NCBI GenBank assembly: GCA_035536235.1
Contig: DATLOQ010000045.1
Location: forward strand, 40,882 to 104,881
Source of the DNA: Mycobacteriales bacterium
GTDB taxonomy: Bacteria; Actinomycetota; Actinomycetes; BP-191
DNA length: 64,000 nucleotides
Direction: 5' to 3'
In this document: piece after piece, positions 19,837 to 59,341 of the stretch
Numbering within the stretch: position 1 is the first letter of the stretch
Layout: every line of letters begins with the position of its first letter
Notes under the pieces: generated by a model
Databases searched by the model: none
The model's input: only the letters and a program-made list of their open reading frames with translations
Told to the model about the DNA's origin: nothing
Translations under genes and position numbers: made by a program

Positions 19837-22317
19837 CTAACCGGTCTGGGACGCCGACGGAGAAGGTGTGGGGCTGGAGCAACGCCGCTTGTCACAGGTC
19901 GGCGACGGTGAAGGGCTCGGCGGCGGTGAGCTGGGGGGCGCGGGGGAGGCGGCGCTCGTCGGACTCGGCGTGGGGGTAGGAGCGGCGACCGCGGACGCAG
20001 TCGGGGAGGGCGACGGGCTGGGCGTCGGCGACGGAAGGATCACCAGCGGCGGTGCTTGGCCGTTGGAGAGGAAGAGCTGGACCGACGAGCCGATGGCGAC
20101 CTCGGCGCCCGGTCCGGGGCTGGTGGCGCCGATCAGGCCGCTCGCGATGGGGAAGGCGGCCACTCGCGTACGGCTGATGACGCCCTTGAGGCCGAGCCCG
20201 GCCAGGATCTTCGTCGCCTCGGTCGGGTCGAGCTCGCGCAAGTCGGGCACGCCGGCGCGCTTGCCGCGGAAGGCTTCGGGAAGCGGTTCGACGAACGACC
20301 GCACTGGCAGACCGGCATGCGCCGGGCCCATGACCGCCTTCCAGATCTGGGCCGGGAAGGAGCCGCCGGTGACGGCGCGCACCCCCTTGAAGCGGACGAG
20401 GGGGAACCGCACCGGCTTGTCCGGGTGGGCCATGGCCACGGCCGTCGCGAGGTCGGGCGTGTAGCCGATGAACCACGCGCTGCCGCTGTCCTGCGATGTC
20501 CCGGTCTTGCCCGCCGCCGGCCGACCGATGTCGGCGCTCTTGCCGCTGCCCGAGGTGATCACGCCGCGGAGCATCGCGGTGACGGCATCGGCGTCCTCCG
20601 GCGTGAGCACCTGCCGGCAGGGGTTGACGGCTGAGACGAGCAGCTCGCTGCCGCCTGGCTCCGTGACGCTGGTGACGCCCGTGGCCGGGCAGTGCTTGCC
20701 GCGGGCGGCAAGCGTCGCGTAGGCCTCGGCCATCTCCAGGGGACTGACCTCGTTGGAGCCGAGCACCATGGAGGGGTGCTTGCGCTTCGCGAAGTCGAAG
20801 CTGGTGATGCCCATCGCCTGCGCGAGGGCGTGCGGGCGGTCCAGCCCGGTGCGCTCCTCCAGCTGGATGAAGTACGTGTTGACCGAGCTGGCGGTGGCCT
20901 TGGCCAGGTTGATCACGCCGAACCCGCTGCCCCGCCCACCGAAGTTGGTGACTCGGTAGCGGTCTCCCGGGCACCGGTTGGGACCGTTGTCCTTGAAGGA
21001 CGAGCAGATCTGCCCGGGGGAGTTGAGGGCGAGCGACAACGGTATGCCCTGCTTGACCGCAGCCGCGAGGATGAAGGTCTTGAACGTCGACCCGGCCTGG
21101 ATGCCCTGCGCGCCCCCGAGAGCGTGGTTGACCTCGGTCTGTCCGGGCAGCTTGCCGTAGACCTGGTTGCTGGCCATCGCGAGCACGTGCCCGGTGCCCG
21201 GCTGCACGACCACGGCGACTGCGGCGGCCCGCTTGCGGTCCTGCGGCGTGAGCGTGCTGTCGAGTGCCGCCTGAGCGGTCTTCTGCAGCGTGGGCACGAG
21301 CGTCGTCCGAATGGTGAGCCCACCCTGGAAGACGCGGGCGATGCGTTGAGCGGTCGTGGCACCGAGCCGCTCGTCGTCGATCAGGGCGTCGCGCACGTAG
21401 GAGCAGAAGAAGGGCGCGATGGTCGTCCCGCACTCGCTGCGGAGCTTGGTCGGCCGGAGCATCGCCTTCAGGGGCACCGCTTTCGCGCCGAGCTCGTCTG
21501 CTTTGGTGATGAACGTCTCGCGCTGCATCACACTCAGCACGAGGTCACGTCGCGCGGTGGCTTCCGCTGGGTTCTTCGTCGGGTCATACAGCGTGGGGTT
21601 CTTCACCATCCCCGCGAGTAGCGCCGCTTCGCCGAGGTTGAGACTCCCCACCTTCTTCGAGAAGTAGTGCTGGGCGGCAGTGCCGACGCCGTACACCCCT
21701 TGGCCGAAGTAGGCGATGTTGAGGTACTTCTCGAGGATCTGGCGCTTGGAGTAACGCTGCTCCAAGGCGAGCGCGAACTTCGCCTCGCGCAGCTTGCGGG
21801 TGGTCGACCGCTCGGTGGCTCGCACGACGTCAGCGCGCTCGGTGGCCGACTCGATGAGCACGTTCTTGACGTACTGCTGGGTGATCGTGGACCCGCCCTG
21901 GGTCACCTGACCGGCCTGCTGGTTCTTCACGAAGGCGCGGGTGAGGCCTCGGAAGTCGACTCCGGCGTGCTGATAGAAGCGGTTGTCCTCGATGGCCAGG
22001 ATCGCTCGCTGCAGGTGAGCGGGCATCTGGCTGATGGGAGCGAGGATGCGGTTCTCGTTGAAGAAGATGTCGGCCAGCACGGTCTTGCCGTCGGCCGCCA
22101 GGATGCGCGACCGGATCGGGAGAGGTCCGTCTCGCAGCTCGTCGGGCAATGACAGGAAGGACTCTGCGCCCGCTCGAGCAGCGAGCCCCAGGCCTCCGAC
22201 GACGGGGAAGAAAGCGCCGGCAGCCAGGACGCCAGCCAAGATGCTGACGAGGACGACAAGCACCACTCGATGCACGAATGCACCGGTGCCTTCGTCCGCG
22301 CCGCCGTAGCTGCTCAC
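19837..22317 (-). CDS. ponA: Class A penicillin-binding protein (transglycosylase plus transpeptidase; PonA2-like)
   Basis: TM anchor, GT51 motifs (AILAIEDNRFYQHAGVD, GGSTITQQYVKN), transpeptidase STFK and KTGT motifs, PASTA-like region and Pro/Ser-rich tail. Confidence 0.85.
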   Translation of the reverse strand: MSSYGGADEGTGAFVHRVVLVVLVSILAGVLAAGAFFPVVGGLGLAARAGAESFLSLPDELRDGPLPIRSRILAADGKTVLADIFFNENRILAPISQMPAHLQRAILAIEDNRFYQHAGVDFRGLTRAFVKNQQAGQVTQGGSTITQQYVKNVLIESATERADVVRATERSTTRKLREAKFALALEQRYSKRQILEKYLNIAYFGQGVYGVGTAAQHYFSKKVGSLNLGEAALLAGMVKNPTLYDPTKNPAEATARRDLVLSVMQRETFITKADELGAKAVPLKAMLRPTKLRSECGTTIAPFFCSYVRDALIDDERLGATTAQRIARVFQGGLTIRTTLVPTLQKTAQAALDSTLTPQDRKRAAAVAVVVQPGTGHVLAMASNQVYGKLPGQTEVNHALGGAQGIQAGSTFKTFILAAAVKQGIPLSLALNSPGQICSSFKDNGPNRCPGDRYRVTNFGGRGSGFGVINLAKATASSVNTYFIQLEERTGLDRPHALAQAMGITSFDFAKRKHPSMVLGSNEVSPLEMAEAYATLAARGKHCPATGVTSVTEPGGSELLVSAVNPCRQVLTPEDADAVTAMLRGVITSGSGKSADIGRPAAGKTGTSQDSGSAWFIGYTPDLATAVAMAHPDKPVRFPLVRFKGVRAVTGGSFPAQIWKAVMGPAHAGLPVRSFVEPLPEAFRGKRAGVPDLRELDPTEATKILAGLGLKGVISRTRVAAFPIASGLIGATSPGPGAEVAIGSSVQLFLSNGQAPPLVILPSPTPSPSPSPTASAVAAPTPTPSPTSAASPAPPSSPPPSPSPSPTCDKRRCSSPTPSPSASQTG

Positions 22318-22534: not shown

Positions 22535-22819
22535 ATGGAGACTGCTACCGACTGGATCGCCCTCGCATCATGCCGAGACAGAGACCCAGACGACCTCTTC
22601 GTGCAGGGTGCCGCTCAGAATCGAGCCAAGCAGCTGTGCATGGGCTGCCCGGTCCGCGCGGAGTGCTTGTCGGACGCCCTGGACAACCGGGTCGAATTCG
22701 GCGTGTGGGGCGGTATGACCGAGAGGGAGCGGCGGGCGCTGCTCCGCAAGCGGCCGCATGTCCGGTCCTGGCGCGCACTGCTCGACTCCGCTCGCCGCGA
22801 CGTCCAGCGGACGGCCTGA
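22535..22819 (+). CDS. whiB: WhiB family transcriptional regulator (WhiB4-like, divergent from ponA)
   Basis: Four Cys (C..CMGCPVRAEC) plus GVWGG turn. Confidence 0.8.
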   Translation: METATDWIALASCRDRDPDDLFVQGAAQNRAKQLCMGCPVRAECLSDALDNRVEFGVWGGMTERERRALLRKRPHVRSWRALLDSARRDVQRTA

Positions 22820-27882: not shown

Positions 27883-28152
27883 ATGAGCGCAGGAACACAG
27901 GCAGACGACGTCTCGTGGCGCGTCCACGGCATGTGCCGTGGAGACAGCGCGGTCTTCTTCTTCGCGCCGCCCCACTTCGAGCGCAAGCCGGAGAAGGACC
28001 TGCGCGAAGGCCAGGCGCGTGCCCTGTGCCGGGCCTGCCCGGTCCGCGACCAATGCCTGGACTACGCGCTGACCGTCGAAGAGCCACACGGCATCTGGGG
28101 TGGTCTGAACGAGCTGGAGCGCCGTCGCCTGCTGCGGCGCCGCTCCGCCTGA
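27883..28152 (+). CDS. whiB: WhiB family transcriptional regulator (WhiB1/WblE-like)
   Basis: CRGDSAVFF...CRACPVRDQC...GIWGG. Confidence 0.8.
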   Translation: MSAGTQADDVSWRVHGMCRGDSAVFFFAPPHFERKPEKDLREGQARALCRACPVRDQCLDYALTVEEPHGIWGGLNELERRRLLRRRSA

Positions 28153-30486: not shown

Positions 30487-31291
30487 CGTCGTCAGCGGGC
30501 GGGCTCGTCGGGTGCTCGCCCCCAACCCGGGGCCCATGACGCTCGAAGGCACCAATACCTGGCTGCTCGCGGAGCCCGGTTCGACAGAGGTAGTGGTGGT
30601 CGACCCTGGGCCCGATGACCCCGGTCACCTCGCGGCGATCCGCCGCAGCGCCGACGACGAGGGCCAGCGGATCGCCCTCGTCGTACTCACCCATGGACAT
30701 CCGGACCACAGCGCGGGGGCGCGAAGTTTGGCCGCGGGTGCTGGTGTCGCCATTCGAGCCTTCGACCCGGCGCATCGCCTTGGCGACGAAGGACTCGGTG
30801 ACGGTGACCTCGTCGAGATCAGCGGTCTGGAGCTGCGGGGCCTCGCCACGCCGGGGCACAGTGCTGACCACGTCTGCCTGGTGATGCCGGCCGAGTCCGC
30901 AGTGCTGACCGGCGACCACGTGCTGGGGCGCGGGACGTCAGTGGTGGCCCATCCCGACGGCCGGATGGCCGACTACCTGCGCTCGCTGGAGCGCCTTCGC
31001 GACCTGGGCGCGAGCCGCCTCCTGCCGGGTCACGGACCGGTGGTCGACGATCCCGCCACCGTCATCGAGCACTACATCGCGCACCGCCGCGAGCGACTGG
31101 ACCAGCTGGTCACCGAGCTCGGTGCCATGGGCCTGGCCACCCCCCGAGAGCTGGTCGAGCGGATCTACGCCGACGTCGACCCGGTGCTGTGGTTTGCGGC
31201 AGAGATGAGCCTGCGGGCCGCTCTTGAGGTGCTGGTCGACGAAGGTCGCGCCGCTGTCGACGCCGACGGTCGACACGAGCTGCTGCGATGA
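30473..31291 (+). CDS. MBL-fold metallo-hydrolase
   Basis: THGHPDHSAG zinc-binding motif. Confidence 0.8.
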   Translation: MPTPDVVSGRARRVLAPNPGPMTLEGTNTWLLAEPGSTEVVVVDPGPDDPGHLAAIRRSADDEGQRIALVVLTHGHPDHSAGARSLAAGAGVAIRAFDPAHRLGDEGLGDGDLVEISGLELRGLATPGHSADHVCLVMPAESAVLTGDHVLGRGTSVVAHPDGRMADYLRSLERLRDLGASRLLPGHGPVVDDPATVIEHYIAHRRERLDQLVTELGAMGLATPRELVERIYADVDPVLWFAAEMSLRAALEVLVDEGRAAVDADGRHELLR

Positions 31292-34200
31292 GCGCGGGCC
31301 CCCCACTTGCGTGCCCGGTCTGCGGTACGCCGACCGTTCCCGCCGCCCACTTCTGCTTCCAGTGCGGTGCCGCACTGCAGGGCCTGAGCGACTTGCACAG
31401 TGATCACGGTGCAGAGCGCCGGGTGGTCACTGTCCTCTTCGGTGACCTCAGCGACTTCACGGCCTGGGCGGAGGACCTCGACCCGGAGCGAGTGGGGGTC
31501 GTCACCGACCGGCTGCTCGCCTCCCTGACGGACGCCGTAACCGCGTTCGGCGGCCATGTCGACAAGCTCACCGGCGACGGCATCATGGCGATCTTCGGAG
31601 CGCCGACGGCACACGAGGACGACGCCGAACGAGCCGTCCGAGCCGCGATGCAGATGCAGGACGAGCTTGGCCGCCTCGTCGCCGAGGAGTCCGGCGGTGG
31701 GCGTCAGCTGGGGCTGCGCGTCGGGCTCAACACCGGCGAGGTGCTGGCCGGGGTGCGGGCCGGCGTGTCCTACACCGTCGTGGGCGACACGGTGAACACT
31801 GCCTCCCGCCTGTCCGACGCGGCAGGGGTCGGCGCGGTGGTGGCCGGCCAGGCCACGGTGGGGCCGACGCTCGCGATCGCCTCGTGGCGCGCGCTGCCGC
31901 CGCTGCGGCTGAAGGGCAAGCGCGACCCCGTGGTGGCGTATGAGCTGATCGCCCTGCGCCGGCGTACGGCGACCCGGCTCGGGCTTGGTGACGAAGCGCC
32001 GCTCACGGGCCGGGAGGCGGAGCTCGGGCTGCTGGTGAGCCGGGTACGCGACTCAGCGGAGCGACGTACGCCGACGACGCTGCTGCTCACCGGGGCGGCT
32101 GGTGTCGGCAAGACGCGGCTCTGGCGCGAGCTGGCCCGGGTGGTCGCCGAGATGCCTGGCTCCCGGGTGCTCGTCGGCCGATGCCCGCCGTACGGCCGCG
32201 CCCGGGACCTGGCCCCGATCGTCGAGATGGTCCGCACCGCCTGCGGCGTCGGCGACGACGATGACGACGCGGTCGCCAGGGGACGCGTCGTTCGCCTCGT
32301 CAGCCGGCTCGACCATCCCGCGAGGGCACGGCGAGGCGGCGGGATGCTGACCGAAACGCTGCTCAACCTCCTCGGCCTTGGCGACGTCGACCTCACCGCC
32401 CCCCGGGAGGCCGCGCCGCCCGGCGAGCAGGGCGGGCGGGGAGAGAGCATCGCTGCGGCGCTGGCCGGACTCTTCTCGGCCCTGGCCGGGGAGGGTCCGC
32501 TTCTGCTGGTCGTGGACGACCTCCAGTGGTCCGGACGCGGGCTGCTCGACCTGCTGACCGCTGTCGCATCGCAGCTCGACGGCGCGGTGACCATGCTCGC
32601 TGTGGGTCGACAGGAGCTGGTCGAAAAGCACGAGGACTGGAGTCCGCGGCTGCCCGACCCGGTGCTGCTGCCCCTGGCTCCGCTGGAGGAGCCGGCGGCC
32701 GACCGGCTGCTGCGCGCCTACCTCGGCGGGTCGGAGCTGGCGGGCAGCGCGCGCCGGATGCTCCTGGACCGGGCGCAGGGCAATCCGTTCTTCCTCGCCG
32801 AGCTGCTGCACCTCCTCATCGACCGAGGCCTGCTGCGTCGCGAGGACGAGGGGTGGGTGGTGACCGGCGACCTGCCGGAGCGGGTGCTGCCGGCCGGCGT
32901 GCACGCGGTGCTGGCCGCACGCATCGACGCTCTGCCCGCGGCTGCCCGCGCCACCTTGCGGGCCGCGGCGGTGGTCGGCAACCGCTTCTGGACCGGTGCG
33001 CTCGTGGCACTGACGGGTCGGGCGGCCGACGAGGTGCGACAGCACCTCTCCGTGCTGGTCGACCACGACGTCGTCCGCTCGGCCGGCGGCGATGCCTGGT
33101 CCTTCACCCACGCGCTGACTCGGGAGGTTGCCTATGCCGGCGTAGCAAAAGTCGACCGAGCCCGCGAGCACGCCCTGGTGGCGCACTGGGCCGTGCGAGA
33201 GCTGACGGGCAGCCCGGCGGAGGTCGATGTGGCCGTGGCGGCGCAAGCCGAGCTGGCCGCCAACCTGGCGCGCGAGATGTCGCTGCCCGTGGGCGACCCG
33301 GCCTGGCTGGCCGCCGAGGTCGGTGTCCTCGCGCTAGTGCGGCTTGGCCGCACCTCCCTCGCGCGCGACGACAACATCAGTGCGGTGGAGCTGCTGGGAC
33401 GGGCTACGGCACTTGGCACGGACAGCGTGTCGGCGGCCGCTTCCTTCGACGCCGGCGTGGCGTACGCCGATGCGCTGGCGCGCGTCCACCGCCTCGATGA
33501 AGCTCTGGTCGCACTGGCTCCCGCGTTGGCCGCCGCTGACCTGGGTGTGCTCGCCGGTGCGCTCGCGGTGCAGGGGGACGTGCGGCGCAAGCAGGGCGAC
33601 GACAAGGGGGCGACGGAGTCCTTCGTCCGGGCGCTGGCCGCTGCCTCAGAGGTGGGTGACGACCGGCTCGTGGCCGAGGCGCTGCGCCAGCTCGGCCTCC
33701 TCGACTTCTTCGCCGGGCGGCTCCCGGAGGCGGAGGAGCGGTTCACCCAGGCCCTTGAGCTGGCCCGCAGGGTCCGCGATCCGCGCGGCACGGGGTGGGC
33801 ACTGCAGCACTTGGCGTGGAGCGCGACGACGCGGGGCGACTACGCCCGCGCCGACGAGACCCTGCGGGCGGCTACGGCGGTCTTCGCCGAGTTCGACGAC
33901 GACCGGGGAGTCGCCTGGTGTGCCGGCACCGAGGCGTTGGTCCGGATGCTCCAGGGGCGGCTGGGAGAAGCGAAGAGCCTGGTCCGGGTGCTGATCGACC
34001 AGACCCGGGCCCACGGCAACCGGTGGGCGGCCGGCGCTTGCCTCACCATCGACGCCATTGCGTCCAGCGAGCTCGGGAACGTGACGCTGGCCGTCGAGCG
34101 GGGACGCCAGGCGCACCTGATCTTCACGGAGCTCGCCGACTCATGGGGTACGTCGCTCGCGCTGGTCGCCCGAGGGATGGCGGCGAGGGCCGGGGGCTCC

Positions 34201-34803
34201 GCGGAGGAGGCGGTGCTGCTGCTCTCCGAGTCAGCTCTTCATGCTGACCGCCACCGGCATCCTTCGGTAGGCACCCTGGCGCTGGTGACCCTCGGCTGGT
34301 GTCACTACGAGGCGCAGCGCCTCGACGACGCGGAAGCCGCCGTTCGTCGATCCCTGGAGCTTGCGGGAGGCCTCGGACTTGAGCCGCAGGCCGCGACGGG
34401 CGAACGGGTGCTCCTGGCGCTGATCGCCCGAGCTCGCGGCGACCTGCCGACGGCGCTGCGCACCCTGCACGACGTCACGAGGACGCCGGCCAGCTCGACG
34501 CTGCTGTTCCCCATGCGCCAGGCCGTCGCTCACTACGCCGCGACGCTGCTCCAGGCGGGTCGTCTCTCGGAGGCACTGGCCCAGGCGGAGCTGGCGCTCA
34601 GCGTGCCGGCCGAGGACGTGCGCTCCACGGTGATCGCCCACCGCGCCTATGGTGCCGCCCTCGCTGCGACCGGCCGACGGGCGGACGCGGAGCAGGCTCT
34701 ACGCACGGCCTGCCGCGTCGCGGAGTCGACCGAGCATGTGCGGGAGCGAGAGGTGACGCAGCGCGCTCTGGCGGACTTCCTTGCCGGCGCTGCTGCGAGG
34801 TAA
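31288..34803 (+). CDS. Multidomain signalling protein: Zn-ribbon, class III adenylate/guanylate cyclase, AAA/NB-ARC ATPase and TPR repeats (STAND type)
   Basis: CPVCGTP...CFQCG ribbon; cyclase core VTVLFGDLSDFT...GDGIMAIFGAP; Walker A GAAGVGKTRL; long TPR-like C-terminus. No LuxR HTH recognised at the end. Confidence 0.8.
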   Translation: MSAGPPLACPVCGTPTVPAAHFCFQCGAALQGLSDLHSDHGAERRVVTVLFGDLSDFTAWAEDLDPERVGVVTDRLLASLTDAVTAFGGHVDKLTGDGIMAIFGAPTAHEDDAERAVRAAMQMQDELGRLVAEESGGGRQLGLRVGLNTGEVLAGVRAGVSYTVVGDTVNTASRLSDAAGVGAVVAGQATVGPTLAIASWRALPPLRLKGKRDPVVAYELIALRRRTATRLGLGDEAPLTGREAELGLLVSRVRDSAERRTPTTLLLTGAAGVGKTRLWRELARVVAEMPGSRVLVGRCPPYGRARDLAPIVEMVRTACGVGDDDDDAVARGRVVRLVSRLDHPARARRGGGMLTETLLNLLGLGDVDLTAPREAAPPGEQGGRGESIAAALAGLFSALAGEGPLLLVVDDLQWSGRGLLDLLTAVASQLDGAVTMLAVGRQELVEKHEDWSPRLPDPVLLPLAPLEEPAADRLLRAYLGGSELAGSARRMLLDRAQGNPFFLAELLHLLIDRGLLRREDEGWVVTGDLPERVLPAGVHAVLAARIDALPAAARATLRAAAVVGNRFWTGALVALTGRAADEVRQHLSVLVDHDVVRSAGGDAWSFTHALTREVAYAGVAKVDRAREHALVAHWAVRELTGSPAEVDVAVAAQAELAANLAREMSLPVGDPAWLAAEVGVLALVRLGRTSLARDDNISAVELLGRATALGTDSVSAAASFDAGVAYADALARVHRLDEALVALAPALAAADLGVLAGALAVQGDVRRKQGDDKGATESFVRALAAASEVGDDRLVAEALRQLGLLDFFAGRLPEAEERFTQALELARRVRDPRGTGWALQHLAWSATTRGDYARADETLRAATAVFAEFDDDRGVAWCAGTEALVRMLQGRLGEAKSLVRVLIDQTRAHGNRWAAGACLTIDAIASSELGNVTLAVERGRQAHLIFTELADSWGTSLALVARGMAARAGGSAEEAVLLLSESALHADRHRHPSVGTLALVTLGWCHYEAQRLDDAEAAVRRSLELAGGLGLEPQAATGERVLLALIARARGDLPTALRTLHDVTRTPASSTLLFPMRQAVAHYAATLLQAGRLSEALAQAELALSVPAEDVRSTVIAHRAYGAALAATGRRADAEQALRTACRVAESTEHVREREVTQRALADFLAGAAAR

Positions 34804-34829
34804 GCCTCAGGAAGGGTCAGTGCGGCAGG

Positions 34830-35075
34830 TCACTCCGCAGAGGTGCTCTGCGCACGCCCGCGACGGCGCCAGTACCGGTCGAGAGCTGACGCGTAGCCAT
34901 GGCTGACGAACGTCTCGAGCTCCTCCGGACGAGCGTTGACCAAGAAGGTCTCCAGCTGCAGCCCCACCTCGTCGACGCGCAGCGGGCGCTCAACGCGTTC
35001 CATGCCCAGCATCGCCAACATCAGCGCCAGCGGGAACACCAGCACGATCAGCGGCAGGAGCAGGTCTGTCGACAC
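34830..35075 (-). CDS. Possible small membrane protein (81 aa)
   Basis: Hydrophobic N-terminus LLLPLIVLVFPLALMLAMLG; no family recognised. Confidence 0.2.
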   Translation of the reverse strand: MSTDLLLPLIVLVFPLALMLAMLGMERVERPLRVDEVGLQLETFLVNARPEELETFVSHGYASALDRYWRRRGRAQSTSAE

Positions 35076-35122: not shown

Positions 35123-36178
35123 GTGCGACCCATGAGGGCTGTGGTCTATCGCGGCGAGCACGACGTCCGGGTGGAGGACGTCGCCGAGCCGGAGATCCTC
35201 TCGCCGGGTGACGCCATCGTCCGGGTGAGCAAAGCGGCGATCTGCGGCTCCGATCTGCACTTCTACAACGGCCGGGTGCCCGGCGTCTTCGAGGGCACGG
35301 TTGTCGGACACGAGTACGTCGGCACGGTGGTGGCCACCGGCGATGACGTCACCCGGTTCGGCGTCGGCGACGAGGTCGTCGGCTCCTTCCAGATCGCCTG
35401 CGGTCGCTGCGTCCCCTGTCGCGCAGGGCGGTTCAATCACTGCGATGACTTGGGCGTCCTGGGCTACGGGATCTTCGTCGGCGACCTCGCCGGGGCTCAG
35501 GCCGAGCTGGTGCGGATCCCGCACGCCGACGTGAACCTCCTCGCCGTTCCGCCGGGCATCACCGGTGAGCAGGCGCTGTTCGCCGGCGACATCCTGACCA
35601 CTGGCTGGTACGCCGCGGGCATCGCGGACATCACCCCGGGCGCCACGGTCGCCGTCGTCGGCTGCGGACCCGTCGGGACCTTCGCGCAGCTGGCTGCGAA
35701 GGCCATGGGAGCCTCGGCAGTCGTGGCGATGGACCTGGTGCCCAGCCGGTTGGAGCTGGCGCGCTCGCTGGGCTCCGTGCCGGTCAACATCGCCGACCGG
35801 TCCCCAGCCGTGGCGGTGGAGGACATCCTCGGCGGCTCGGCCGACGTGGTGATCGAGACGGTCGGGCTCCCCCCGGCACTGATCACTGCCATCGACTGTG
35901 TGCGGCCCGGTGGCACGGTGAGCGTGATCGGGGTGCACACCGACTTCGAGCAGTCGCTGCCGGTCAGCAACCTCTTCACCCGCAACATCACCCTGCGATT
36001 CGGCGGCTTGTGCAACGTGCAAGGCTGGTGGGAGCAGGCGCTGCACGCAGTCGCGTCCGGCCAGGTCGACCCCACGGTGGTCATCAGCCACCGGATGCCG
36101 CTCGAAGAAGCCGCGGAGGGCTACCGGCTCTTCGAGGCCAAGACGGCGATGAAGGTCGTGCTGGACGTCAGCCCCTGA
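35123..36178 (+). CDS. Zinc-dependent alcohol dehydrogenase family (MDR) oxidoreductase
   Basis: GHEYVG, structural-zinc CGRCVPCRAG, Rossmann VVGCGPVG. Confidence 0.85.
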   Translation: MRPMRAVVYRGEHDVRVEDVAEPEILSPGDAIVRVSKAAICGSDLHFYNGRVPGVFEGTVVGHEYVGTVVATGDDVTRFGVGDEVVGSFQIACGRCVPCRAGRFNHCDDLGVLGYGIFVGDLAGAQAELVRIPHADVNLLAVPPGITGEQALFAGDILTTGWYAAGIADITPGATVAVVGCGPVGTFAQLAAKAMGASAVVAMDLVPSRLELARSLGSVPVNIADRSPAVAVEDILGGSADVVIETVGLPPALITAIDCVRPGGTVSVIGVHTDFEQSLPVSNLFTRNITLRFGGLCNVQGWWEQALHAVASGQVDPTVVISHRMPLEEAAEGYRLFEAKTAMKVVLDVSP

Positions 36179-36185
36179 CGGCCTA

Positions 36186-36746
36186 TCAGGCGGTGCTGCG
36201 GGCCGGGCTGTGTGACGTCGGGAGGACGCCGAGGCACAGTGCGGGCTCCTCCCGATAGCGGGCGATCAGCTCCGTCGTAGCCGCCGAGATCCGTTGGTGG
36301 AGCGCGGACCGGTAGGCGGAGAGCTGGGCCTCGGCTTCCGTCAGCTCGGACACCAGCGCGGCCCGGCCCGCTTCGTCGCCTGGTTCAACGGTGCGGTCCC
36401 AGAGCTGCTCCAGGTTGGGCAGCGGGGGGATGTCGTCGAAGGGCATGATCTCGATGAGCGCGGTGCGCCCGCCGGCGACCCGTGAGTCCGTGAGCATCGG
36501 ACGCAGGTGGTCGAGGTCGCCGGTCATCCGCTCGGCGCGCAGGGTGTCCAGCCGAGCCTGCAGGATGCGCCGCCAGTAGGAGACGCGGCTCTCCTCCTGG
36601 CTCAGCGTCTGGCGGTAATGCCGTACGCCGTCCAGCCTGAGGTGGTTGAAGTCCGCACTGCGCTCGGGCACCGCCTTCGGCTCACCCGATTGGGACGTCA
36701 AGACTTCACCTTCGATAGGGGCACTCGGCTGCTGATGCTGGGTCAC
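36186..36746 (-). CDS. Helical protein with an RsiG-type ExxxSxxRxxxQxxxD motif (RsiG-like c-di-GMP-binding anti-sigma candidate)
   Basis: EESRVSYWRRILQARLD matches E(x3)S(x2)R(x3)Q(x3)D exactly; a second degenerate copy is EAQLSAYRSALHQRIS. Confidence 0.35.
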   Translation of the reverse strand: MTQHQQPSAPIEGEVLTSQSGEPKAVPERSADFNHLRLDGVRHYRQTLSQEESRVSYWRRILQARLDTLRAERMTGDLDHLRPMLTDSRVAGGRTALIEIMPFDDIPPLPNLEQLWDRTVEPGDEAGRAALVSELTEAEAQLSAYRSALHQRISAATTELIARYREEPALCLGVLPTSHSPARSTA

Positions 36747-36846
36747 TGCAGTAACCCAGTGTCGGCATCGTCACGGGCATGCGGGTGCTTGAGTGGGCCA
36801 TCCGGGTGATCAGCACGCGCGCCGGTGGCGTCGTACGCTTCTGTCG

Positions 36847-37527
36847 ATGAGCCCGACCCGCGCCGCCACCCTGTCGGCGAGCCGCACCGCGCTGGTCCGT
36901 CGGGCCCGCGCGGTCAACCGCGGGCTCGCCCAGGCCTACCCCGACGCGCACTGCGAGCTCGACTTCACCACGCCGCTCGAGCTCTGCGTGGCGACGATCC
37001 TCAGTGCCCAGTGCACCGACAAGAAGGTCAACGAGGTCACCCCGGCGCTGTTCGCCCGCTATCGCAGCGCTGCGGACTACGCCGGGGCGGACCGCGACGA
37101 GATGGAAGTGCTGATCAAGCAGACCGGCTTCTTCCGGGCCAAGACGACGTCGCTGATCGGGCTCGGCCAGGCTCTCTGCGACCGCTACCAGGGGCAGGTG
37201 CCCGGACGGCTCGAGGACCTGATCACCCTGCCGGGCATCGGGCGCAAGACCGCCAACGTCGTGCTCGGCAATGCTTTCGGCGTCCCCGGGCTGACCGTCG
37301 ACACCCACTTCGGCCGGCTGGCCCGGCGCCTCGGCTGGACCGTGGAGGACGACCCGGTGAAGGTCGAGCGTGAGGTGATGGACCTGATCCCTCGAGCCGA
37401 GTGGACGATGCTGTCGCACCGGCTCATCTGGCACGGCCGCCGCTGCTGCTTCGCCCGCAAGCCGGCTTGTGGCGCCTGCAGCGTGGCCCGGCTGTGCCCG
37501 TCGGCGGGTCTAGTGGGCACTCCCTGA
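36847..37527 (+). CDS. nth: Endonuclease III
   Basis: HhH-GPD region [13 protein letters not shown] and 4Fe-4S cluster [18 protein letters not shown]. Confidence 0.9.
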
Positions 37528-38225: not shown

Positions 38226-39026
38226 GTGATCAATGGTGAGAACGTGCCGACGGATGGGCAAGAACGCACCACTGATCACCTGGGTGCGCGGGCGCCGGTG
38301 CGGGCGGAGGCGCGGGTAGACCCGCGGATGCTGCCGGATTGGCTCCGGCCGCTGGAGGCCGGGCTGGGCCAGGTCCGCGCCGAGGACATCAGCCGGTTCA
38401 CCCCCCCTCCCGGGACGCCGGGTCGCCAGGGCGCCGTCCTCGCGCTCTTCGGCGAAGGCCCCGCTGGGCCCGACCTGCTCTTCATCGAGCGGGCCCACAC
38501 CATGCGCTCGCATGCCGGCCAGCCCGCCTTCCCGGGCGGCAGCGTCGACGAGGGCGACCCGAGCATCGCAGCCACGGCGCTGCGCGAGGCGACTGAGGAG
38601 GTTGGCCTCGACCCGGGCGGCGTGACCGTCTTCGGCACTCTGCCTCCGCTCTACCTGCCGCCGAGCGCCTTCACCGTGACGACGGTGCTCGGGTGGTGGC
38701 ACACGCCGTGCGCGGTGCACGCCGCCGATGCCGACGAGGTCGCCTCCGTCGTACGCGTGCCGATCGCCGACCTCGCAGACCCGGCCAACCGGTGCCGGGT
38801 CCGGCTGCTCGGCGACTACACCGGTCCTGGCTTCCGGGTCGGCGGCCTGCTCGTCTGGGGGTTCACCGCCGGCCTTGTCGACGCGCTGCTCCGCTTCGGC
38901 GGCTGGGCGCTGCCGTGGGAGCCCGCCGATGTCGTCGACCGGCCGGAGCCTCGGCTCGCCGCGGGGCATGCGCCGTACGATCCGGCGGACGTGCCCAGTG
39001 GGGAAGACGGAGGTGAGCAGCAGTGA
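38226..39026 (+). CDS. NUDIX hydrolase (CoA pyrophosphatase-like)
   Basis: Nudix box GGSVDEGDPSIAATALREATEEVGL; start ambiguous (GTG 38226 or ATG 38328). Confidence 0.7.
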   Translation: MINGENVPTDGQERTTDHLGARAPVRAEARVDPRMLPDWLRPLEAGLGQVRAEDISRFTPPPGTPGRQGAVLALFGEGPAGPDLLFIERAHTMRSHAGQPAFPGGSVDEGDPSIAATALREATEEVGLDPGGVTVFGTLPPLYLPPSAFTVTTVLGWWHTPCAVHAADADEVASVVRVPIADLADPANRCRVRLLGDYTGPGFRVGGLLVWGFTAGLVDALLRFGGWALPWEPADVVDRPEPRLAAGHAPYDPADVPSGEDGGEQQ

Positions 39027-40621
39027 GCGCCGACGCCCGAGCCGCCATGCTCGTCGACCGGCTGACGGCAGAGCTCGCGCCGCTGGAGCGAGAGGCCAGC
39101 GAGGCGTGGTGGAAGTCCAACGTCGAGGCCTCGGAGCAGGCAGAAGCTCGACGCATCGAGCTCGAGCAGCGGGTCTCCGACCGGTACGCCGTCGCCGCCG
39201 ACCTCGCCGAGCTCGAGGAGGTCGCTCGCGGCGGCATCGGAGATCCGCTCCTCGCCCGCAGTGTCGAGGTCCTGCGGCTCTCCTTCGCCGGCGAGCAGCT
39301 GCCCGTCGAGCAGCGGTCAGAGATGGTCCGCCTCGGCGCAGAGTGCGACACCGTCTATGCGACTTTTCGGGGTGAGGCCGGCGGGCGACGGTGGACTGAC
39401 AACGAGGTCGAGCAGGTCCTCGCCGCGAGCGACGACATCGACGAGCGCGAAGCCGCCTGGCTCGCCTCCAAGCAGGTCGGTGCGGCCGTCGCCGAGCGGG
39501 TCCTGCGGCTGGTCGAGGTCCGCAACACCTGCGCCCGCCAGCTAGGGCACGCCAGCTTCTATGCCATGGCACTCGCCCTGGGGGAGCTGTCCGAAGCTCG
39601 GCTCTTCGAGCTGCTCGATGAGCTCGAGCAGCTGACGGCCGAGCCGTTTGCCCAGCTCAAGGCCGGCATAGATGACCGGCTGGCAGCGCGGTTCGGCACG
39701 ACGCGGGACGCCCTGATGCCGTGGCATTACGCCGACGCGTTCTTCCAGGAGGCGCCCCGCGAGGCTGCGCTGGATCTGGATCCGCTGGTAGCGGGGCGGG
39801 ACCTCACCGCGCTGACGATGGCGACGTACGACGGCCTCGGCTTGCCGCTGCGTGACGTGGCCGACCGGAGCGACTTGGTGGGTCGGGAGGGGAAGAACCA
39901 GCACGCCTTCTGCATCAACATCGACCGCGGTGGTGACGTGCGGGTGCTCGCCAACGTCGTCGACAACGAGCGCTGGGCGTCGACGATGCTGCACGAGTTC
40001 GGCCACGCGGCGTACGACGTGGGGTTGCGGCCCGACTTGCCGTGGTCGCTGCGCATCCCCGCCCACTCGTTGACGACGGAGGCGGTGGCGCAGCTCTTCG
40101 GGCGCTTGTCGAAGGACCCGGGGTGGCTGCGGGACATCGCCGGGGTGCCGGCCGCGGACGCGGAGGCCCTCGCCGGTGACGTCCGGGCAGCGCTCCGCGC
40201 GAGCATGCTGGTCTTCGCCCGATGGGTGCTCGTCATGTGCCACTTCGAGCGCGACCTCTACACGGAGCTGGGGAAGCCCGGCTTCGACCCCGACGCGCGG
40301 TGGTGGGAGCACGTCGAGCGCTTCCAGCTGCTGCGCCGCCCTCCCGGCCGCGCGGACAGCCCCGACTGGGCCGCCAAGCTGCACCTGGCCCTCGCACCGG
40401 TCTACTACCAGAACTACGTCCTCGGGGAGTGCCTGGCGTCGCAGCTCGCGGCGACGGTGGCGCAGCGGGGCGGTCGTCTGTACAACGACCCGGCGACGGG
40501 GCGCTGGCTGGGGGAGCACGTGTTCGGCCCTGGCGCATCGCTGCGCTGGGACCACCTGGTGACACGCGCTACCGGATCACCCCTGTCCGCCGCAGCCTTC
40601 GTGCAGGAGTTCGTGTCCTGA
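39023..40621 (+). CDS. Zinc metallopeptidase, gluzincin (M2/M3/M32-like) with HEXXH
   Basis: MLHEFGHAAYD; 532 aa; start overlaps the upstream stop (GTGA). Confidence 0.6.
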   Translation: MSADARAAMLVDRLTAELAPLEREASEAWWKSNVEASEQAEARRIELEQRVSDRYAVAADLAELEEVARGGIGDPLLARSVEVLRLSFAGEQLPVEQRSEMVRLGAECDTVYATFRGEAGGRRWTDNEVEQVLAASDDIDEREAAWLASKQVGAAVAERVLRLVEVRNTCARQLGHASFYAMALALGELSEARLFELLDELEQLTAEPFAQLKAGIDDRLAARFGTTRDALMPWHYADAFFQEAPREAALDLDPLVAGRDLTALTMATYDGLGLPLRDVADRSDLVGREGKNQHAFCINIDRGGDVRVLANVVDNERWASTMLHEFGHAAYDVGLRPDLPWSLRIPAHSLTTEAVAQLFGRLSKDPGWLRDIAGVPAADAEALAGDVRAALRASMLVFARWVLVMCHFERDLYTELGKPGFDPDARWWEHVERFQLLRRPPGRADSPDWAAKLHLALAPVYYQNYVLGECLASQLAATVAQRGGRLYNDPATGRWLGEHVFGPGASLRWDHLVTRATGSPLSAAAFVQEFVS

Positions 40622-42192: not shown

Positions 42193-43002
42193 GTGGACCG
42201 ACGTGAAGCGCTGCGCGCGGGCGCCCTGGTGGCGGCGGGCGCCGCAGTGGGGCGCTGGTCGCGTCAGCCTGAGCCACCATTAGATGCAGTTGCGGCGACG
42301 GACCGTGGCTTCGCCGGCACGCGCGCGGGGTCCGGGTCGGCAGCGAGCACCCAGGTCATCTGGCAGGTGAGCACCGACGAGCCCGTGCTGGCGCTGACCT
42401 TCGACGACGGGCCGGTGCCGTCGTACACCCAGGACTACCTGGACATGCTGCGTGACCGCGACGTGCAGGCCACCTTCAACCTCGTCGGCCGCAACGCACT
42501 CGACCACCCGGAGCTGGTGCGACGGGAGATCGCCGACCGGCACCAAGTCGAGAACCACTCATGGAGCCACCTCGACCTCGCCACCGCGACCGCTGCGCAG
42601 ACCGACCATGAGCTCGCCCGCGGTGCCGACGTCCTCGAGTCGCTGACCGGCCGGGCACCGCGTTACTTCCGGCCGCCTCGCGGCAATCTGTCCGGCGCCA
42701 CGCTCAATGCTGCTGCCCGAGCGGGGGAGGACGTCCTGCTGTGGTCGGTCCAGCTGCACGAGTCGCGACTCGACGTCGACGCGAACATCGCGCATGTCCT
42801 GGCGCGGGTGCAGCCCGGCACCATCCTGCTGGCTCACGACACCCACCACGGCACCATCGACCGGCGCATCGGCCTGCGTGCTCTGCCGGTGATCATCGAC
42901 CGGCTGCGCGACCGGGGCTTTCGGTTCGTCACCGTTGATGAGCTGGTGACTGCCGGGCCCGCCCTCCCGCCGCCCGCCGGGGGGCCACTCGCCAGCCGTT
43001 AA
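42193..43002 (+). CDS. Polysaccharide deacetylase (NodB homology), Tat-type signal
   Basis: RR signal; LALTFDDGP and HSWSH motifs. Confidence 0.8.
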   Translation: MDRREALRAGALVAAGAAVGRWSRQPEPPLDAVAATDRGFAGTRAGSGSAASTQVIWQVSTDEPVLALTFDDGPVPSYTQDYLDMLRDRDVQATFNLVGRNALDHPELVRREIADRHQVENHSWSHLDLATATAAQTDHELARGADVLESLTGRAPRYFRPPRGNLSGATLNAAARAGEDVLLWSVQLHESRLDVDANIAHVLARVQPGTILLAHDTHHGTIDRRIGLRALPVIIDRLRDRGFRFVTVDELVTAGPALPPPAGGPLASR

Positions 43003-55290: not shown

Positions 55291-56358
55291 ATGACTCGCC
55301 CGCTGCTCGTCACCGCTGATGAGGCCCGTTTGGACGACCTGCTGCGGCTCTGCGCCGCGGCGGGCGTCGAGCCGCAGGTGGCTCGCGACGTCGCCGCCGC
55401 GCGTCGCGCCTGGTCGGGCGCCACCGTCGTGCTGCTCTGCGACGACCTCGCCGCGTCACTCGCTCTTCCGGGTCTTCCCCGACGCCCCGGCGTCGTCCTC
55501 GTCGGCGCCGACCTCGACGACGCATCGGTGTGGCGCCGCGCCGTCGAGCTCGGTGCCGAGCACGTCGTCTTCCTGCCCGACGCGGACAGCTGGCTGGTGG
55601 ACCGGCTGGCCGGGGCCGGGGAGGCGGACCGTCTCGGCGTGGTGGTCGGGGTGATGGGCGGCCGGGGCGGGGCCGGCGCGACCACCTTGTCCGTCGCGCT
55701 CGCCGTCGCCTCCCAGCGACTGGGGCATCGGACGACCTTGTGCGACGTGGATCCACTCGGGGGCGGAGTCGATCTCGTGCTGGGGAGTGAGAGCGCACCA
55801 GGAGCCCGCTGGCCGGACCTGACCGGTGACGTTCGAGTGCCCGGGGGAGTGCTGTCGCTCGCTCCGTCCATCGACGACGTGGCGATGGTCAGCTGGGACC
55901 GCGGCGACGTCCTAGACCTGCCGCCGGGGGTGTGCGCCTCCGTGCTCAGCAGTGCGCGCCGATCGAGTGATGTGGTCGTCGTAGACCTGCCCCGCTCGGC
56001 TCCCTGGTGCGCGGTCGAGGGCTTGACCGCACTGGACACGCTGCTCCTCGTGGTTCCGCTAGAGGTGCGGGCCGTGGCCTCGACCGCACGAGTCGCCTCT
56101 GCTGTCGCGCCGTACGTCGACGACCTCCGGTTGGTGGTTCGCAGGCGGTCGGTGCCCGGTCTCGACCCGACCTTCGTGGGGGCCACTCTGGGGCTTCCGG
56201 TGGCCGGCGTGTTCAAGCCCGAGCGCTCCGTGGTCTCCGACCTCGACCGCGGGCTGCCGCCGGCAGGGGGCCGCGGCCACCTGGCCCGGCTGGCGACGCG
56301 TCTGGTGCGGGATTTCGTCGGGTCACCGGCGCGCGGAGCGGCCGGCGCGGCGGCGTGA
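55291..56358 (+). CDS. CpaE/TadZ-like Tad-locus ATPase-fold protein (septum-site-determining-like)
   Basis: N-terminal receiver-like region; GGRGGAGATTLSVALA deviant Walker A. Confidence 0.75.
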   Translation: MTRPLLVTADEARLDDLLRLCAAAGVEPQVARDVAAARRAWSGATVVLLCDDLAASLALPGLPRRPGVVLVGADLDDASVWRRAVELGAEHVVFLPDADSWLVDRLAGAGEADRLGVVVGVMGGRGGAGATTLSVALAVASQRLGHRTTLCDVDPLGGGVDLVLGSESAPGARWPDLTGDVRVPGGVLSLAPSIDDVAMVSWDRGDVLDLPPGVCASVLSSARRSSDVVVVDLPRSAPWCAVEGLTALDTLLLVVPLEVRAVASTARVASAVAPYVDDLRLVVRRRSVPGLDPTFVGATLGLPVAGVFKPERSVVSDLDRGLPPAGGRGHLARLATRLVRDFVGSPARGAAGAAA

Positions 56359-57506
56359 GCGAGACGGAGCTGCTGGACCGGGTGCGACGTCGGCTCGCGG
56401 CGCAGAGCGTCGAGCCGACGCCGGCGCGGATCGCTGCCGCGGTCCGGGCCGAAGGCGGGAGCCTGCCGCCCGCCGACGGGCTGAGCCTCCTGCAGCGCTT
56501 GCAGGACGACCTGCTCGGTGCGGGACCGTTGGCGCCGCTGCTGCGCGACACGGCGGTCACCGACGTCCTCGTCAACGCGGCCGACGAGGTGTGGGTGGAC
56601 CGCGGTCGCGGGCTCGAGCAGGCGGACATCTGCTTCGCCGATGACGACGACGTACGCCGGCTCGTCGCCCGTCTCCTCGTGCCCACCGGGCGACGTCTTG
56701 ACGACGCCCAGCCGTGGGTCGATGCGCGGCTGCCTGACGGCACGCGGCTGCACGCGATCCTCACGCCGATCGCCAGCCGCGGCACCTGCCTCTCGCTGCG
56801 CACTCTGGGCCGCCAGCACTTCACGTTGGCAGACCTCGCTGCGGCTGGGTCGGCCTCGCCCATCGTGGTCGAGGTGCTGGAGGCCGTCGTGCGAGCTCGG
56901 CTGTCGGTGCTGATCAGTGGCGGCACCGGGACGGGCAAGACCACGCTTCTGTCCTGCCTGCTCGGCCTCGTTGATGCGGGGGAGCGCATCGTCGTCGTCG
57001 AGGACTCGGCTGAGCTGCGGCCCACCTGCCGGCATGTCGTGCGGCTCGAGGCGCGCCCGCCCAACGTCGACGGTGCGGGCGAGGTGACTCTGCGCGATCT
57101 GGTGCGTCAGGCGATGCGGATGCGCCCCGACCGCCTCGTCGTGGGGGAGGTGCGCGGCGCCGAGGTGGCCGAGATGCTGGCGGCGCTCAACACAGGACAC
57201 GAGGGCGGCCTGTCGACCGTGCACGCCAACACCAGCCGCGACGTGCCGGCCCGGCTCGAGGCGCTGGGCAGCACGGCCGGGATGACGCGCGACGCCCTGC
57301 ACGCGCAGGCGGCGGCCGCACTCGACGTCATCGTGCACCTGCGGCGAGCGCGCGACGGACTGCGGACCGTCGCTGAGATCGGTGTAGTGACCCGAGGTGC
57401 GGACGGCCTGGTGGTGGTGCGCGGTGCGGTGGACCGGGACGGGCCAGCCGCCGGCTGGCCGGACCTCGTGGAGCTGCTCGGTGCCCGCGACGTCCACCTG
57501 CCGTGA
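56355..57506 (+). CDS. tadA: Tad pilus assembly ATPase TadA/CpaF
   Basis: Walker A GGTGTGKTT and secretion-ATPase His box. Confidence 0.85.
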   Translation: MSETELLDRVRRRLAAQSVEPTPARIAAAVRAEGGSLPPADGLSLLQRLQDDLLGAGPLAPLLRDTAVTDVLVNAADEVWVDRGRGLEQADICFADDDDVRRLVARLLVPTGRRLDDAQPWVDARLPDGTRLHAILTPIASRGTCLSLRTLGRQHFTLADLAAAGSASPIVVEVLEAVVRARLSVLISGGTGTGKTTLLSCLLGLVDAGERIVVVEDSAELRPTCRHVVRLEARPPNVDGAGEVTLRDLVRQAMRMRPDRLVVGEVRGAEVAEMLAALNTGHEGGLSTVHANTSRDVPARLEALGSTAGMTRDALHAQAAAALDVIVHLRRARDGLRTVAEIGVVTRGADGLVVVRGAVDRDGPAAGWPDLVELLGARDVHLP

Positions 57507-58291
57507 CGTCCGCGGAGCTGCTCCCTCCGGTCGCTGCTGGTGTGGCGGTCTGGCTGCTGGTCGCACCGGCCGCCACCTCCTCGCGCCAGTCAGGTCAACC
57601 GCTTGCTCTGCCCGCAGTGGACGCGCCGGTCGTGCTCGCCCTGGCCGGTGCCGGGGCCGGCCTCATCGTCTTTGGCGGGGTGCTGGGCGCCGGTCTCGGG
57701 GCCGCCCTGGGTGCGGGGGTGGGGCGGGCTGTGCAGCATCGGCGCACACATCAAGCGGAGGCCGCCGTACGAGGCGCACTGCCCGATGTGCTTCGCCTGC
57801 TGGCCGCCGAGCTGCAGGCGGGTGTGGCACCCGACGTCGCGCTGGGGTCGTGCAGTGCCGGTGCACCGCGCGCCCTCGCGATGCACCTGGGGTCGGTGAG
57901 CGCTGGCGCCCGACTGGGTTTGGACCCGGCCGTGACGCTGGCTCCAGGTCCGCCCGGCGCTGAGGGCCTGCGCGCTCTGGCCGCGTGTTGGCGGGTCAGT
58001 CAGTCCACCGGGTCCTCTCTCGGCATCGGTGTCGCCCGGCTGGCCAGCGGGCTGGCTGCCGAAGAACGCTGCCGGGCCGAGGTCGACGCCCAGCTCGCCG
58101 GTCCGCGCGCTTCGGCTGCGGTGCTGGCCACGCTGCCGCTCCTCGCGGTGACGATGTCGGTCGGCCTGGGCGCCTCGCCCCTCACGTTCTTCCGCACCCC
58201 GGTCGGCACTGCGTGTCTGGCCGTCGGAGCCGCACTCGACGTAGCCGGACTCCGCTGGACGCGACGTCTCGCCGCGGCGGCCACCCGGTGA
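57503..58291 (+). CDS. tadB: Tad pilus membrane protein TadB (T2SS F family)
   Basis: Multi-TM T2SSF-like protein; GTGA overlap with tadA. Confidence 0.7.
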   Translation: MTSAELLPPVAAGVAVWLLVAPAATSSRQSGQPLALPAVDAPVVLALAGAGAGLIVFGGVLGAGLGAALGAGVGRAVQHRRTHQAEAAVRGALPDVLRLLAAELQAGVAPDVALGSCSAGAPRALAMHLGSVSAGARLGLDPAVTLAPGPPGAEGLRALAACWRVSQSTGSSLGIGVARLASGLAAEERCRAEVDAQLAGPRASAAVLATLPLLAVTMSVGLGASPLTFFRTPVGTACLAVGAALDVAGLRWTRRLAAAATR

Positions 58292-59019
58292 TCTCCCTGG
58301 CCGCTGTGCTCAGTGCCGCGGCGGTTGCCTTGGCACTGTCGGATGCCCGCGGCCGGACGGCTCGGGCGATGATCCATGCCCTGCCGCGCGCGCCCGAGCT
58401 CACCAGCGCTTCGCGGGTCGGCCCCGCGATGTGCGGGCTGGCCGGGGCCGCGGTCGCTCAGCACCTCGGCGGGTGGACTGGGGTCGTGGTCGGTGCGGGA
58501 GCCGGCGCAGGGGCGTGGGCAGCGGTACGGGCCGCACCGAGGCGTGCCCGGCTGGCAGCTGACCGTCGACTCTTGCAAGCCATCCCGCTGGGCTGCGACC
58601 TGCTCGCTGCCTGCGTCAGCGCCGGGGCGTCCCCGCAGGCCGCGACCCGGGCGGTGGCGGAGGCAGTGCCAGGTCCGTTGGCAGACGTGCTGCACGGGGT
58701 CGCGAGGTCGCTGGCTCTCGGCGGGTCCGCGACGCAGGCGTGGGCGCCGTACGCCGATGGCCCGGCAGCGCTGCGCACTCTGGCTGTGGTGCTGTGCCGG
58801 GCATCGCTCTCCGGCGCTTCGCCGGCCCCCATGCTCGATGCGCTCGCCGTGGACCAGCGAGAGCGGCAGCGTCTCGCGGGCGAGGCAGCGGCGCGGCGAG
58901 CCGGCGTCGCGATGGTGGCGCCCCTGGGGTTGTGCTTCCTGCCTGCGTTCGTGCTGCTCGGCGTCGTCCCTCTTGTCGCTGGGCTTCTCGGCGGCGGGCT
59001 GGACCTGCTCGCTGGCTGA
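58288..59019 (+). CDS. tadC: Tad pilus membrane protein TadC
   Basis: Multi-TM T2SSF-like protein; GTGA overlap with tadB. Confidence 0.65.
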   Translation: MISLAAVLSAAAVALALSDARGRTARAMIHALPRAPELTSASRVGPAMCGLAGAAVAQHLGGWTGVVVGAGAGAGAWAAVRAAPRRARLAADRRLLQAIPLGCDLLAACVSAGASPQAATRAVAEAVPGPLADVLHGVARSLALGGSATQAWAPYADGPAALRTLAVVLCRASLSGASPAPMLDALAVDQRERQRLAGEAAARRAGVAMVAPLGLCFLPAFVLLGVVPLVAGLLGGGLDLLAG

Positions 59020-59161
59020 GCCCAGTGCGGCCGACCTTTCCACAGATGTGCCGTTGGGTCGCCACCAGAATCCGCCGGTCATCGACCGTGGTGCAGCGAC
59101 GGCACCCGCTGTCGCTGCCGGCTCGCAACGACCCGGCAGGGCTCGAAATACCGGAGGCACC

Positions 59162-59341
59162 ATGGGCAGGATCACGGCGATGCGGAGCAGCAGGGACGCG
59201 GGGATGGCGACGGCGGAGTACGCCGTCGGAACAGTCGCGGCGTGTGGGTTCGGCGGCGTGCTCTACAAGCTGCTGACCAACGAGTCGATCCTCGAGCTGC
59301 TGACGAACGTCGTCAGCAAAGCGCTGCGGTTCGGGCTGTAG
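59162..59341 (+). CDS. flp: Flp/Fap-type pilin (DUF4244-like)
   Basis: MGRITAMRSSRDAGMATAEYAVGTVAACGFGGVLYKLL: Flp prepilin motif G/ATAEYA followed by a hydrophobic helix. Confidence 0.65.
   Translation: MGRITAMRSSRDAGMATAEYAVGTVAACGFGGVLYKLLTNESILELLTNVVSKALRFGL

Follow-up and report, generated by a model that had tools for sequence, protein, structure and literature searches.

The gene located at positions 36186 to 36701 on the minus strand of the 64,000-nucleotide stretch of Mycobacteriales DNA analysed here (the window) encodes a protein which, as judged from its sequence, is an ordinary member of the known RsiG anti-sigma family. We consider it probable that this protein is a twin-helix RsiG of uncultured Frankiales-like Mycobacteriales, armed by c-di-GMP, which would hold back a WhiG-type sigma factor. 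In this way the RsiG/c-di-GMP switch would be extended to abundant uncultured soil actinobacteria.

Results

The rsiG-like gene and its first motif

The longest open reading frame at this locus in the ORF list (36186..36746, minus strand) opens with a GTG at 36746 and would give a protein of 186 amino acids. The true start is likely to be the TTG at 36701, giving 171 amino acids, because an SD sequence, GAAGGTGA (36706..36713), is situated 5 nt upstream of this codon and the same TTG start is shared by HVE62917.1, an NCBI entry of 171 amino acids which comes from a MAG labelled Mycobacteriales bacterium. The gene and the segments of its product discussed below are as follows.

36186..36701 (-): rsiG-like gene, 171 aa from TTG; PF22802; 99% identity to HVE62917.1; SD GAAGGTGA
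36534..36635 (-): alpha1 (residues 23-56 in the 171-aa numbering), first helix of the predicted antiparallel coiled coil; AlphaFold2, aligned to alpha1 of S. venezuelae RsiG
36546..36593 (-): motif 1, ESRVSYWRRILQARLD, exact E-x3-S-x2-R-x3-Q-x3-D on alpha1; pattern search and alignment of 120 homologs
36417..36437 (-): DDIPPLP segment in the alpha1-alpha5 linker; clade alignment, D90, P92, P93, L94 and P95 invariant
36249..36374 (-): helix alpha5, residues 110-151, then a conserved ELIARYRE / LCL..LP tail; AlphaFold2 and alignments
36285..36332 (-): motif 2, EAQLSAYRSALHQRIS, with E, S and R kept, H for Q and Ser for Asp; pattern search and alignment

The preliminary description of this DNA had singled out an exact copy of the signature E(x3)S(x2)R(x3)Q(x3)D, and this reading proved correct. 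Residues 51-67 of the 186-aa form are EESRVSYWRRILQARLD, with E52, S56, R59, Q63 and D67 as the key residues of motif 1. In a six-frame translation of the 64-kb window this is the sole exact copy, against 0.065 expected from composition, and the exact motif arises in 0.045% of shuffles of the protein. The same description had made its claim depend on conservation of the motif in orthologs. The E, S, R, Q and D of motif 1 are kept in 120/120 of the closest homologs, which are 56-99% identical to the protein and match PF22802 in every case, and the claim therefore stands.

Family membership and predicted fold

The protein matches the Pfam family PF22802 (RsiG-like) in two stretches and scores 65.1 bits, the gathering cutoff being 27; with this model RsiG of Streptomyces venezuelae reaches 118 bits. 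When 1.84 billion representative proteins were searched exhaustively with HMMER, 836 family members were retrieved. NCBIfam, which is without an RsiG model, gave no match for the protein nor for S. venezuelae RsiG. When the single sequence was searched against the PDB with phmmer, residues 23-169 were aligned to 6pfj_T (S. venezuelae RsiG) with E = 8e-5 and three single-motif RsiG chains were also retrieved, the significant matches being RsiG chains only. A clade profile built from 31 members gave 6pfj_T at 9.3e-9 and the single-motif RsiG chains at about 5e-7, with nothing besides RsiG chains below 1e-3 in the PDB. The assignment to the RsiG family, which had been made from the motif and which a lack of profile similarity to RsiG was to overturn, is thus borne out by both kinds of search.

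The AlphaFold2 model of the 171-aa form (pLDDT 86, pTM 0.77) contains two long helices, residues 23-56 and 110-151, with one motif on each, and the predicted fold is a long alpha1/alpha5 helical hairpin. In a Foldseek search of the PDB the best two matches were 6pfv_T and 6pfj_T, at a TM of about 0.5 and with weak E-values (0.12-0.46), as expected for a helical hairpin with a linker that folds only in the complex. Since two motif-bearing helices are predicted, the protein is a twin-helix RsiG and not one of the single-motif type of 84-118 amino acids.

The preliminary description had likened the protein to single-motif RsiG homologs, and this likeness did not hold. Single-motif RsiGs form homodimers (Rubrobacter and Thermoleophilia; PDB 7LQ2, 7LQ3 and 7LQ4), and their alpha1 and motif can be aligned with those of the window protein (E about 5e-7 with the clade profile); however, they lack alpha5, whereas the window protein has both helices. 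A single-motif reading was rejected given the length of 171 amino acids and the presence of alpha5, of a remnant of the second motif and of the C-terminal tail.

The second motif and the lost aspartate

The preliminary description had called the second copy of the motif degenerate. This is true of its last two key positions, where H replaces Q and Ser replaces Asp, but E, S and R are kept, and the copy is only partly degenerate. A full E-x3-S-x2-R-x3-[Q/H]-x3-D is accordingly absent from alpha5, the final Asp being Ser. The E, S, R and H of motif 2 are invariant in 120/120 closest homologs, in which the last position is G (48), A (38), S (27), Q (5), T (1) or E (1), and D in none. Among 140 wider family representatives, near-full-length sequences drawn from the best 150 of the 836 family matches, this position is D in 88, and the non-D forms are concentrated in the closest relatives. 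The presence of Asp in 88/140 distant sequences and in 0/120 close ones indicates that its loss is derived and fixed in the clade, and not the product of random decay.

In the solved S. venezuelae complex two Asp residues read both outer guanines of dimeric c-di-GMP at their Watson-Crick faces, and the quadruple mutant R71A/D79A/R169A/D177A fails to bind this dinucleotide (PMC7005675). The replacement of Q by H is accepted in published RsiG homologs (PMC8325347). With the Asp missing from alpha5, only one would be left of the two contacts by which the outer guanines are read on their Watson-Crick faces; owing to this loss the c-di-GMP site is probably asymmetric, and binding may be weaker.

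WhiG-contact residues and the search for whiG

The residues of RsiG that contact WhiG are known from the solved complex, in which the loop residue R115 stacks on c-di-GMP (PMC7005675). Those contacting sigma4 of WhiG in S. venezuelae (R54, R57, I183 and Y187) correspond to R27, R30, L145 and Y149 of the window protein, and those contacting sigma2 (Y69 and L99) to Y42 and L66, all of them invariant in the clade; the equivalent of R115, R79, is invariant as well.

No WhiG-like sigma gene is present in the 64-kb window, as had been noted before: tblastn with S. venezuelae WhiG, a probe validated against PDB 6pfj_A, gave nothing below E = 1. From 185,579 species genomes that were scanned, 312 relatives were obtained, of which the best 80 were compared, and in none of these 80 does a whiG gene lie within 10 kb of the rsiG-like gene. 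The absence of whiG from the window says little, since rsiG and whiG are unlinked both in these 80 loci and in S. venezuelae (vnz_19430 and vnz_26215), and whiG is present in 134/134 published genomes with rsiG (PMC7005675).

When homologs of S. venezuelae WhiG were searched for, the best 120 matches came from Streptomycetaceae only (Streptomyces and two Actinacidiphila). Scanning of metagenomes yielded 80 WhiG loci; 67 are not Streptomyces-like, and K57/G61/R62 are present in nearly all. Tetranucleotide similarity did not assign these loci to the lineage of the window. When the medoid of the largest soil WhiG cluster served as query, the matches were dominated by one "Actinomycetes bacterium" lineage, with no contig or locus tag common to the RsiG matches. 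The soil metagenome WhiG homologs outside Streptomyces (L086-L165) show 58-77% identity and almost all keep the c-di-GMP/RsiG contacts K57, G61, R62, T235, L236, Y239, E240 and L242. In locus L168 the gene order is dprA, xerC-like, whiG, M23 peptidase, rpsB and tsf. Cultured members of the RsiG clade were not encountered, the cluster entries for 30 proteins being all MAG or metagenome, and among roughly 70 window ORFs scanned there was no GGDEF or EAL gene.

A conserved promoter-like element upstream of the gene

Alignment of the upstream regions exposed an element which, in the window, sits inside the 145-bp gap that separates the rsiG-like gene from nth (ATG at 36847).

36765..36792 (-): flagellar/WhiG-class promoter-like element, TCAAG-N15-GACGATGC; upstream alignment and pattern search

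The element reads TCAAGCACCCGCATGCCCGTGACGATGC (36792..36765), in which TCAA (36789..36792) is the -35 part and GACGAT (36767..36772) the -10 part. The -10 element (GACGATGC) ends 63 nt 5' of the TTG, and the GACGA of TCAA-N16-GACGA (36768..36792) is placed 66 nt before this codon. In the aligned regions the block consists of C-TCAA-G, 15 variable bases and G-[A/C]-CGA-[C/T]; the spacer varies, and the flanking C(-1) and G(+4) are 95-96% conserved.

The pattern T[CA]AA-N15-17-GNCGA is found in 70/80 upstream regions (69/79 relatives and the window), and with one-mismatch variants in 9 more the count rises to 79/80 (78/79 relatives and the window). The opposite strand of the same 80 regions gave 0 matches to the promoter pattern, while the background amounts to 1.6% among 7016 control segments taken from these loci and to at most 4/80 in shuffles. 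Within the window TMAA-N16-GMCGAH has a single match, with 0.51 expected, and hence no significance can be drawn from the window alone; the weight of the promoter comes from the conservation of both elements across proteins that are 52-66% identical, with a free spacer between them. By gene calling, the element is intergenic in L081, L083 and L166.

The published search criterion for WhiG promoters is T(A/C)AA, N16 and GCCGA, with one mismatch outside CGA and within 200 bp of the start codon, and TCAA-N16-GACGA of the window agrees with it (PMC12871210); patterns that demand exact GCCGA do not match the site. The element also fits the WhiG1 consensus (CTCA-N17), and consequently the promoter does not distinguish WhiG1 from WhiG2. 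The conservation of this putative promoter implies that a FliA/WhiG-class sigma factor exists in these lineages and would transcribe the rsiG-like gene. A generic scan for sigma-70 promoters and terminators gave nothing near the gene.

The sigma-28-like pattern is met again some 160 nt into the coding sequence of crp in several relatives (L013 11013-11038, L028 11024-11049, L058 11139-11164 and at least six more loci). This recurrence is probably a by-product of conserved codons, and it serves as a warning that a short pattern can be conserved for other reasons.

Conserved gene order around the rsiG-like gene

The best 80 of the 312 relatives are without exception MAGs of Actinomycetota (their labels being Mycobacteriales, Frankiales, Frankiaceae, Acidothermaceae or just Actinomycetota), in keeping with the restriction of twin-motif RsiG to Actinobacteria. 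Their loci share the following features.

nth, divergent neighbour: 79/80 loci
crp downstream, same strand: 74/80 loci
NUDIX gene: 73/80 loci
thioredoxin-like gene: 72/80 loci
small membrane protein directly downstream, before crp: 57/80 loci
whiG within 10 kb: 0/80 loci

The same-strand order rsiG-like gene, small membrane protein (79-90 aa) and crp, with gaps of 9-58 bp, was recorded in 74 of L001-L080. Gene calls for three further loci confirm the arrangement of small protein and crp, and the same order is seen in L081 (1090-2742), L083 (5279-6532) and L084 (829-2388). This order suggests co-transcription with the cAMP receptor protein gene, and it could equally be inherited gene order. The nth-adjacent rsiG-like gene is also carried by the Acidothermaceae MAGs (L067 and L074).

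In the window the gene is flanked by a zinc alcohol dehydrogenase gene (ADH) and by the endonuclease III gene nth, as originally described. The placing of crp and Rv3675 at this site in M. tuberculosis fits too, for the relatives carry the small membrane protein and crp beside the gene. By its Pfam content the window is syntenic with the actinobacterial region equivalent to Rv3682-Rv3654c of M. tuberculosis. Four of its genes are considered here.

34830..35075 (-): predicted membrane protein of 81 aa; neighbour comparison
35123..36178: ADH
39023..40621: M2/M3/M32-like peptidase
42193..43002: polysaccharide deacetylase

ADH occurs in 3/80 loci only and the peptidase in 7/80 only, and neither peptidase nor deacetylase is present in the closest locus, L001; the three genes look like lineage-specific insertions into a conserved block. 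The site of crp (34740..34856) spans 118 bp in the window versus 837 bp, with crp, in L001, and the whole 64-kb window contains no crp-like sequence; on this comparison crp is cleanly deleted. A role of the rsiG-like gene as a replacement of crp was rejected, given that in the relatives crp sits downstream of the rsiG-like gene and here is deleted.

Discussion

Proposed mechanism and alternative readings

The most likely mechanism is the known one, by which c-di-GMP-loaded RsiG sequesters a WhiG-type sigma factor. A c-di-GMP dimer would be bound between alpha1 and alpha5, and the loaded protein would then sequester a sigma factor of the WhiG type (sigma-28 family) encoded elsewhere in the genome, which would be released when c-di-GMP falls. 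Because the same class of sigma factor appears to transcribe the rsiG-like gene, anti-sigma and sigma factor would constitute a negative feedback loop, as do FliA and FlgM, and we regard such feedback as probable. In flagellated bacteria the anti-sigma gene of the FlgM-FliA pair is transcribed from a promoter of its own sigma-28-class factor. FlgM differs from the window protein in its unrelated sequence and in being controlled by secretion and not by c-di-GMP, and the feedback proposed for the window is deduced from the conserved promoter motif.

The possibility of an orphan sensor, raised in the preliminary description, supposes that the protein binds c-di-GMP, that WhiG has been lost and that the target is another one (a different sigma factor or the neighbouring Crp/cAMP circuit). 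No whiG gene is present in the window or within 10 kb in the 80 loci, and the short gaps in the order rsiG-like gene, small protein and crp in 74/80 loci point in the same direction. However, rsiG and whiG are normally unlinked, so that the absence from the window is uninformative, and they occur together in all 134 published genomes (PMC7005675); the residues for contact with sigma4 and sigma2 of WhiG are invariant; and the nth-crp block is syntenic across Actinobacteria, and thus the adjacency of crp may reflect inherited gene order only. The WhiG-type promoter element in front of the gene, in the window and in nearly all relatives, implies such a sigma factor in these lineages, and the protein is therefore probably not an orphan sensor; as a full account of the data we find this reading improbable. 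Rather unlikely, too, is an RsiG relative that has ceased to respond to c-di-GMP and works as an anti-sigma factor which is constitutive or regulated in another way, or that binds some other nucleotide. Such a change would suit a clade whose 120 close homologs all lack Asp at the end of motif 2 and in which this loss is derived, Asp being retained in 88/140 distant representatives, the more so as base specificity is due to the Asp residues and no binding is shown by the R71A/D79A/R169A/D177A mutant (PMC7005675). That mutant nevertheless carries four substitutions and not one, His for Gln is accepted in published homologs (PMC8325347), and the loop residue equivalent to R115 is invariant. Furthermore, 9/10 motif positions are strictly conserved, including both Arg residues and the stacking H, which is hard to explain without a ligand.

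The Asp-less alpha5 motif has also been considered as the mark of a distinct RsiG subtype in uncultured Frankiales-like actinobacteria, with an asymmetric nucleotide site and hence another stoichiometry, affinity or even ligand, a sigma-28-class promoter, usual co-transcription with the small membrane protein and crp and, in its extreme version, no WhiG; to this proposal we give a small probability. If it were true, c-di-GMP and cAMP signalling would be coupled. A chance motif in an unrelated helical protein can be practically dismissed. Helical, charge-rich proteins can yield patterns of spaced residues, and the Foldseek E-values are weak (0.12-0.46), but with 0.065 matches expected in the window and 0.045% of shuffles the motif is rare, the Pfam score exceeds the family's gathering threshold by far and the protein aligns over its full length with RsiG. 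A chance origin was rejected on the PF22802 match, the alignments to RsiG chains and the 120/120 invariance. The c-di-GMP-armed, twin-helix RsiG thus remains the reading that we prefer.

Comparison with known systems

S. venezuelae RsiG belongs to the same Pfam family, can be aligned collinearly over the full length with the window protein at about 28% identity, and is likewise encoded apart from whiG. Both proteins have two long helices (predicted for the window protein) with the motifs at equivalent positions, and motif 1 is identical in its five key residues. The equivalents of Y69, R54, R57, Y187 and R115 are kept, I183 is changed to L, and a similar tail is shared (EIARRYRE in S. venezuelae RsiG and ELIARYRE in the window protein). 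The differences concern motif 2, where Q173 and D177 are replaced by H and Ser; the linker, with its invariant DDIPPLP; and the location of the gene, which adjoins nth. Moreover, the window gene is preceded by the sigma-28-class promoter-like element, whereas S. venezuelae rsiG is outside the three reported WhiG targets (PMC12871210).

Twin-motif RsiG homologs are found outside Streptomyces in Geodermatophilaceae, Pseudonocardiaceae and Acidothermus (Acel_0065 and Acel_1994), and RsiG of G. obscurus binds WhiG2 in a two-hybrid assay (PMC8325347, PMC12871210). With these the window protein has in common its origin in Actinobacteria other than Streptomyces, the twin-helix size class and the Q/H variation in the motif; we infer orthology of its clade to Gobs_4624, Acel_0065 and Acel_1994. 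In the published twin-motif RsiGs the Q/H variation falls in motif 1 and the Asp is well conserved in both motifs, whereas in the window clade the H stands in motif 2, from which Asp is absent.

The clade with an Asp-less motif 2, the WhiG-class promoter and the fixed order nth, rsiG, small protein and crp are details that we did not find described in the RsiG papers, and they leave the basic picture of the RsiG system unchanged. A clade that has uniformly lost a base-reading Asp represents a natural single-site variant for dissecting how dimeric c-di-GMP is recognised, and a conserved WhiG-class promoter-like element before an anti-sigma gene implies feedback.

Other genes of the window

Class III adenylate/guanylate cyclase domains are found in two of the genes among 31288..34803, 59587..60798 and 61129..63987. 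In one of these the cyclase is combined with AAA_16 and TPR (1171 aa), in the other with a hydrolase domain; the third gene, also a large one with AAA_16/TPR, is without a cyclase match. The neighbourhood is thus rich in cAMP-related genes in a window that lost crp. Type IV pili of Rubrobacter are under WhiG control. The window contains a Tad/Flp-type pilus set at 55291..59341 (ParA-like ATPase, T2SSE ATPase, two T2SSF proteins and DUF4244), and no WhiG-type promoter match was found at these genes. Two WhiB-family genes (22535..22819 and 27883..28152) flank a pair of ArsA-like ATPase genes, and together with a PBP with a PASTA domain (19837..22317) this WhiB/PBP region matches the conserved actinobacterial whiB4 / ponA2 region.
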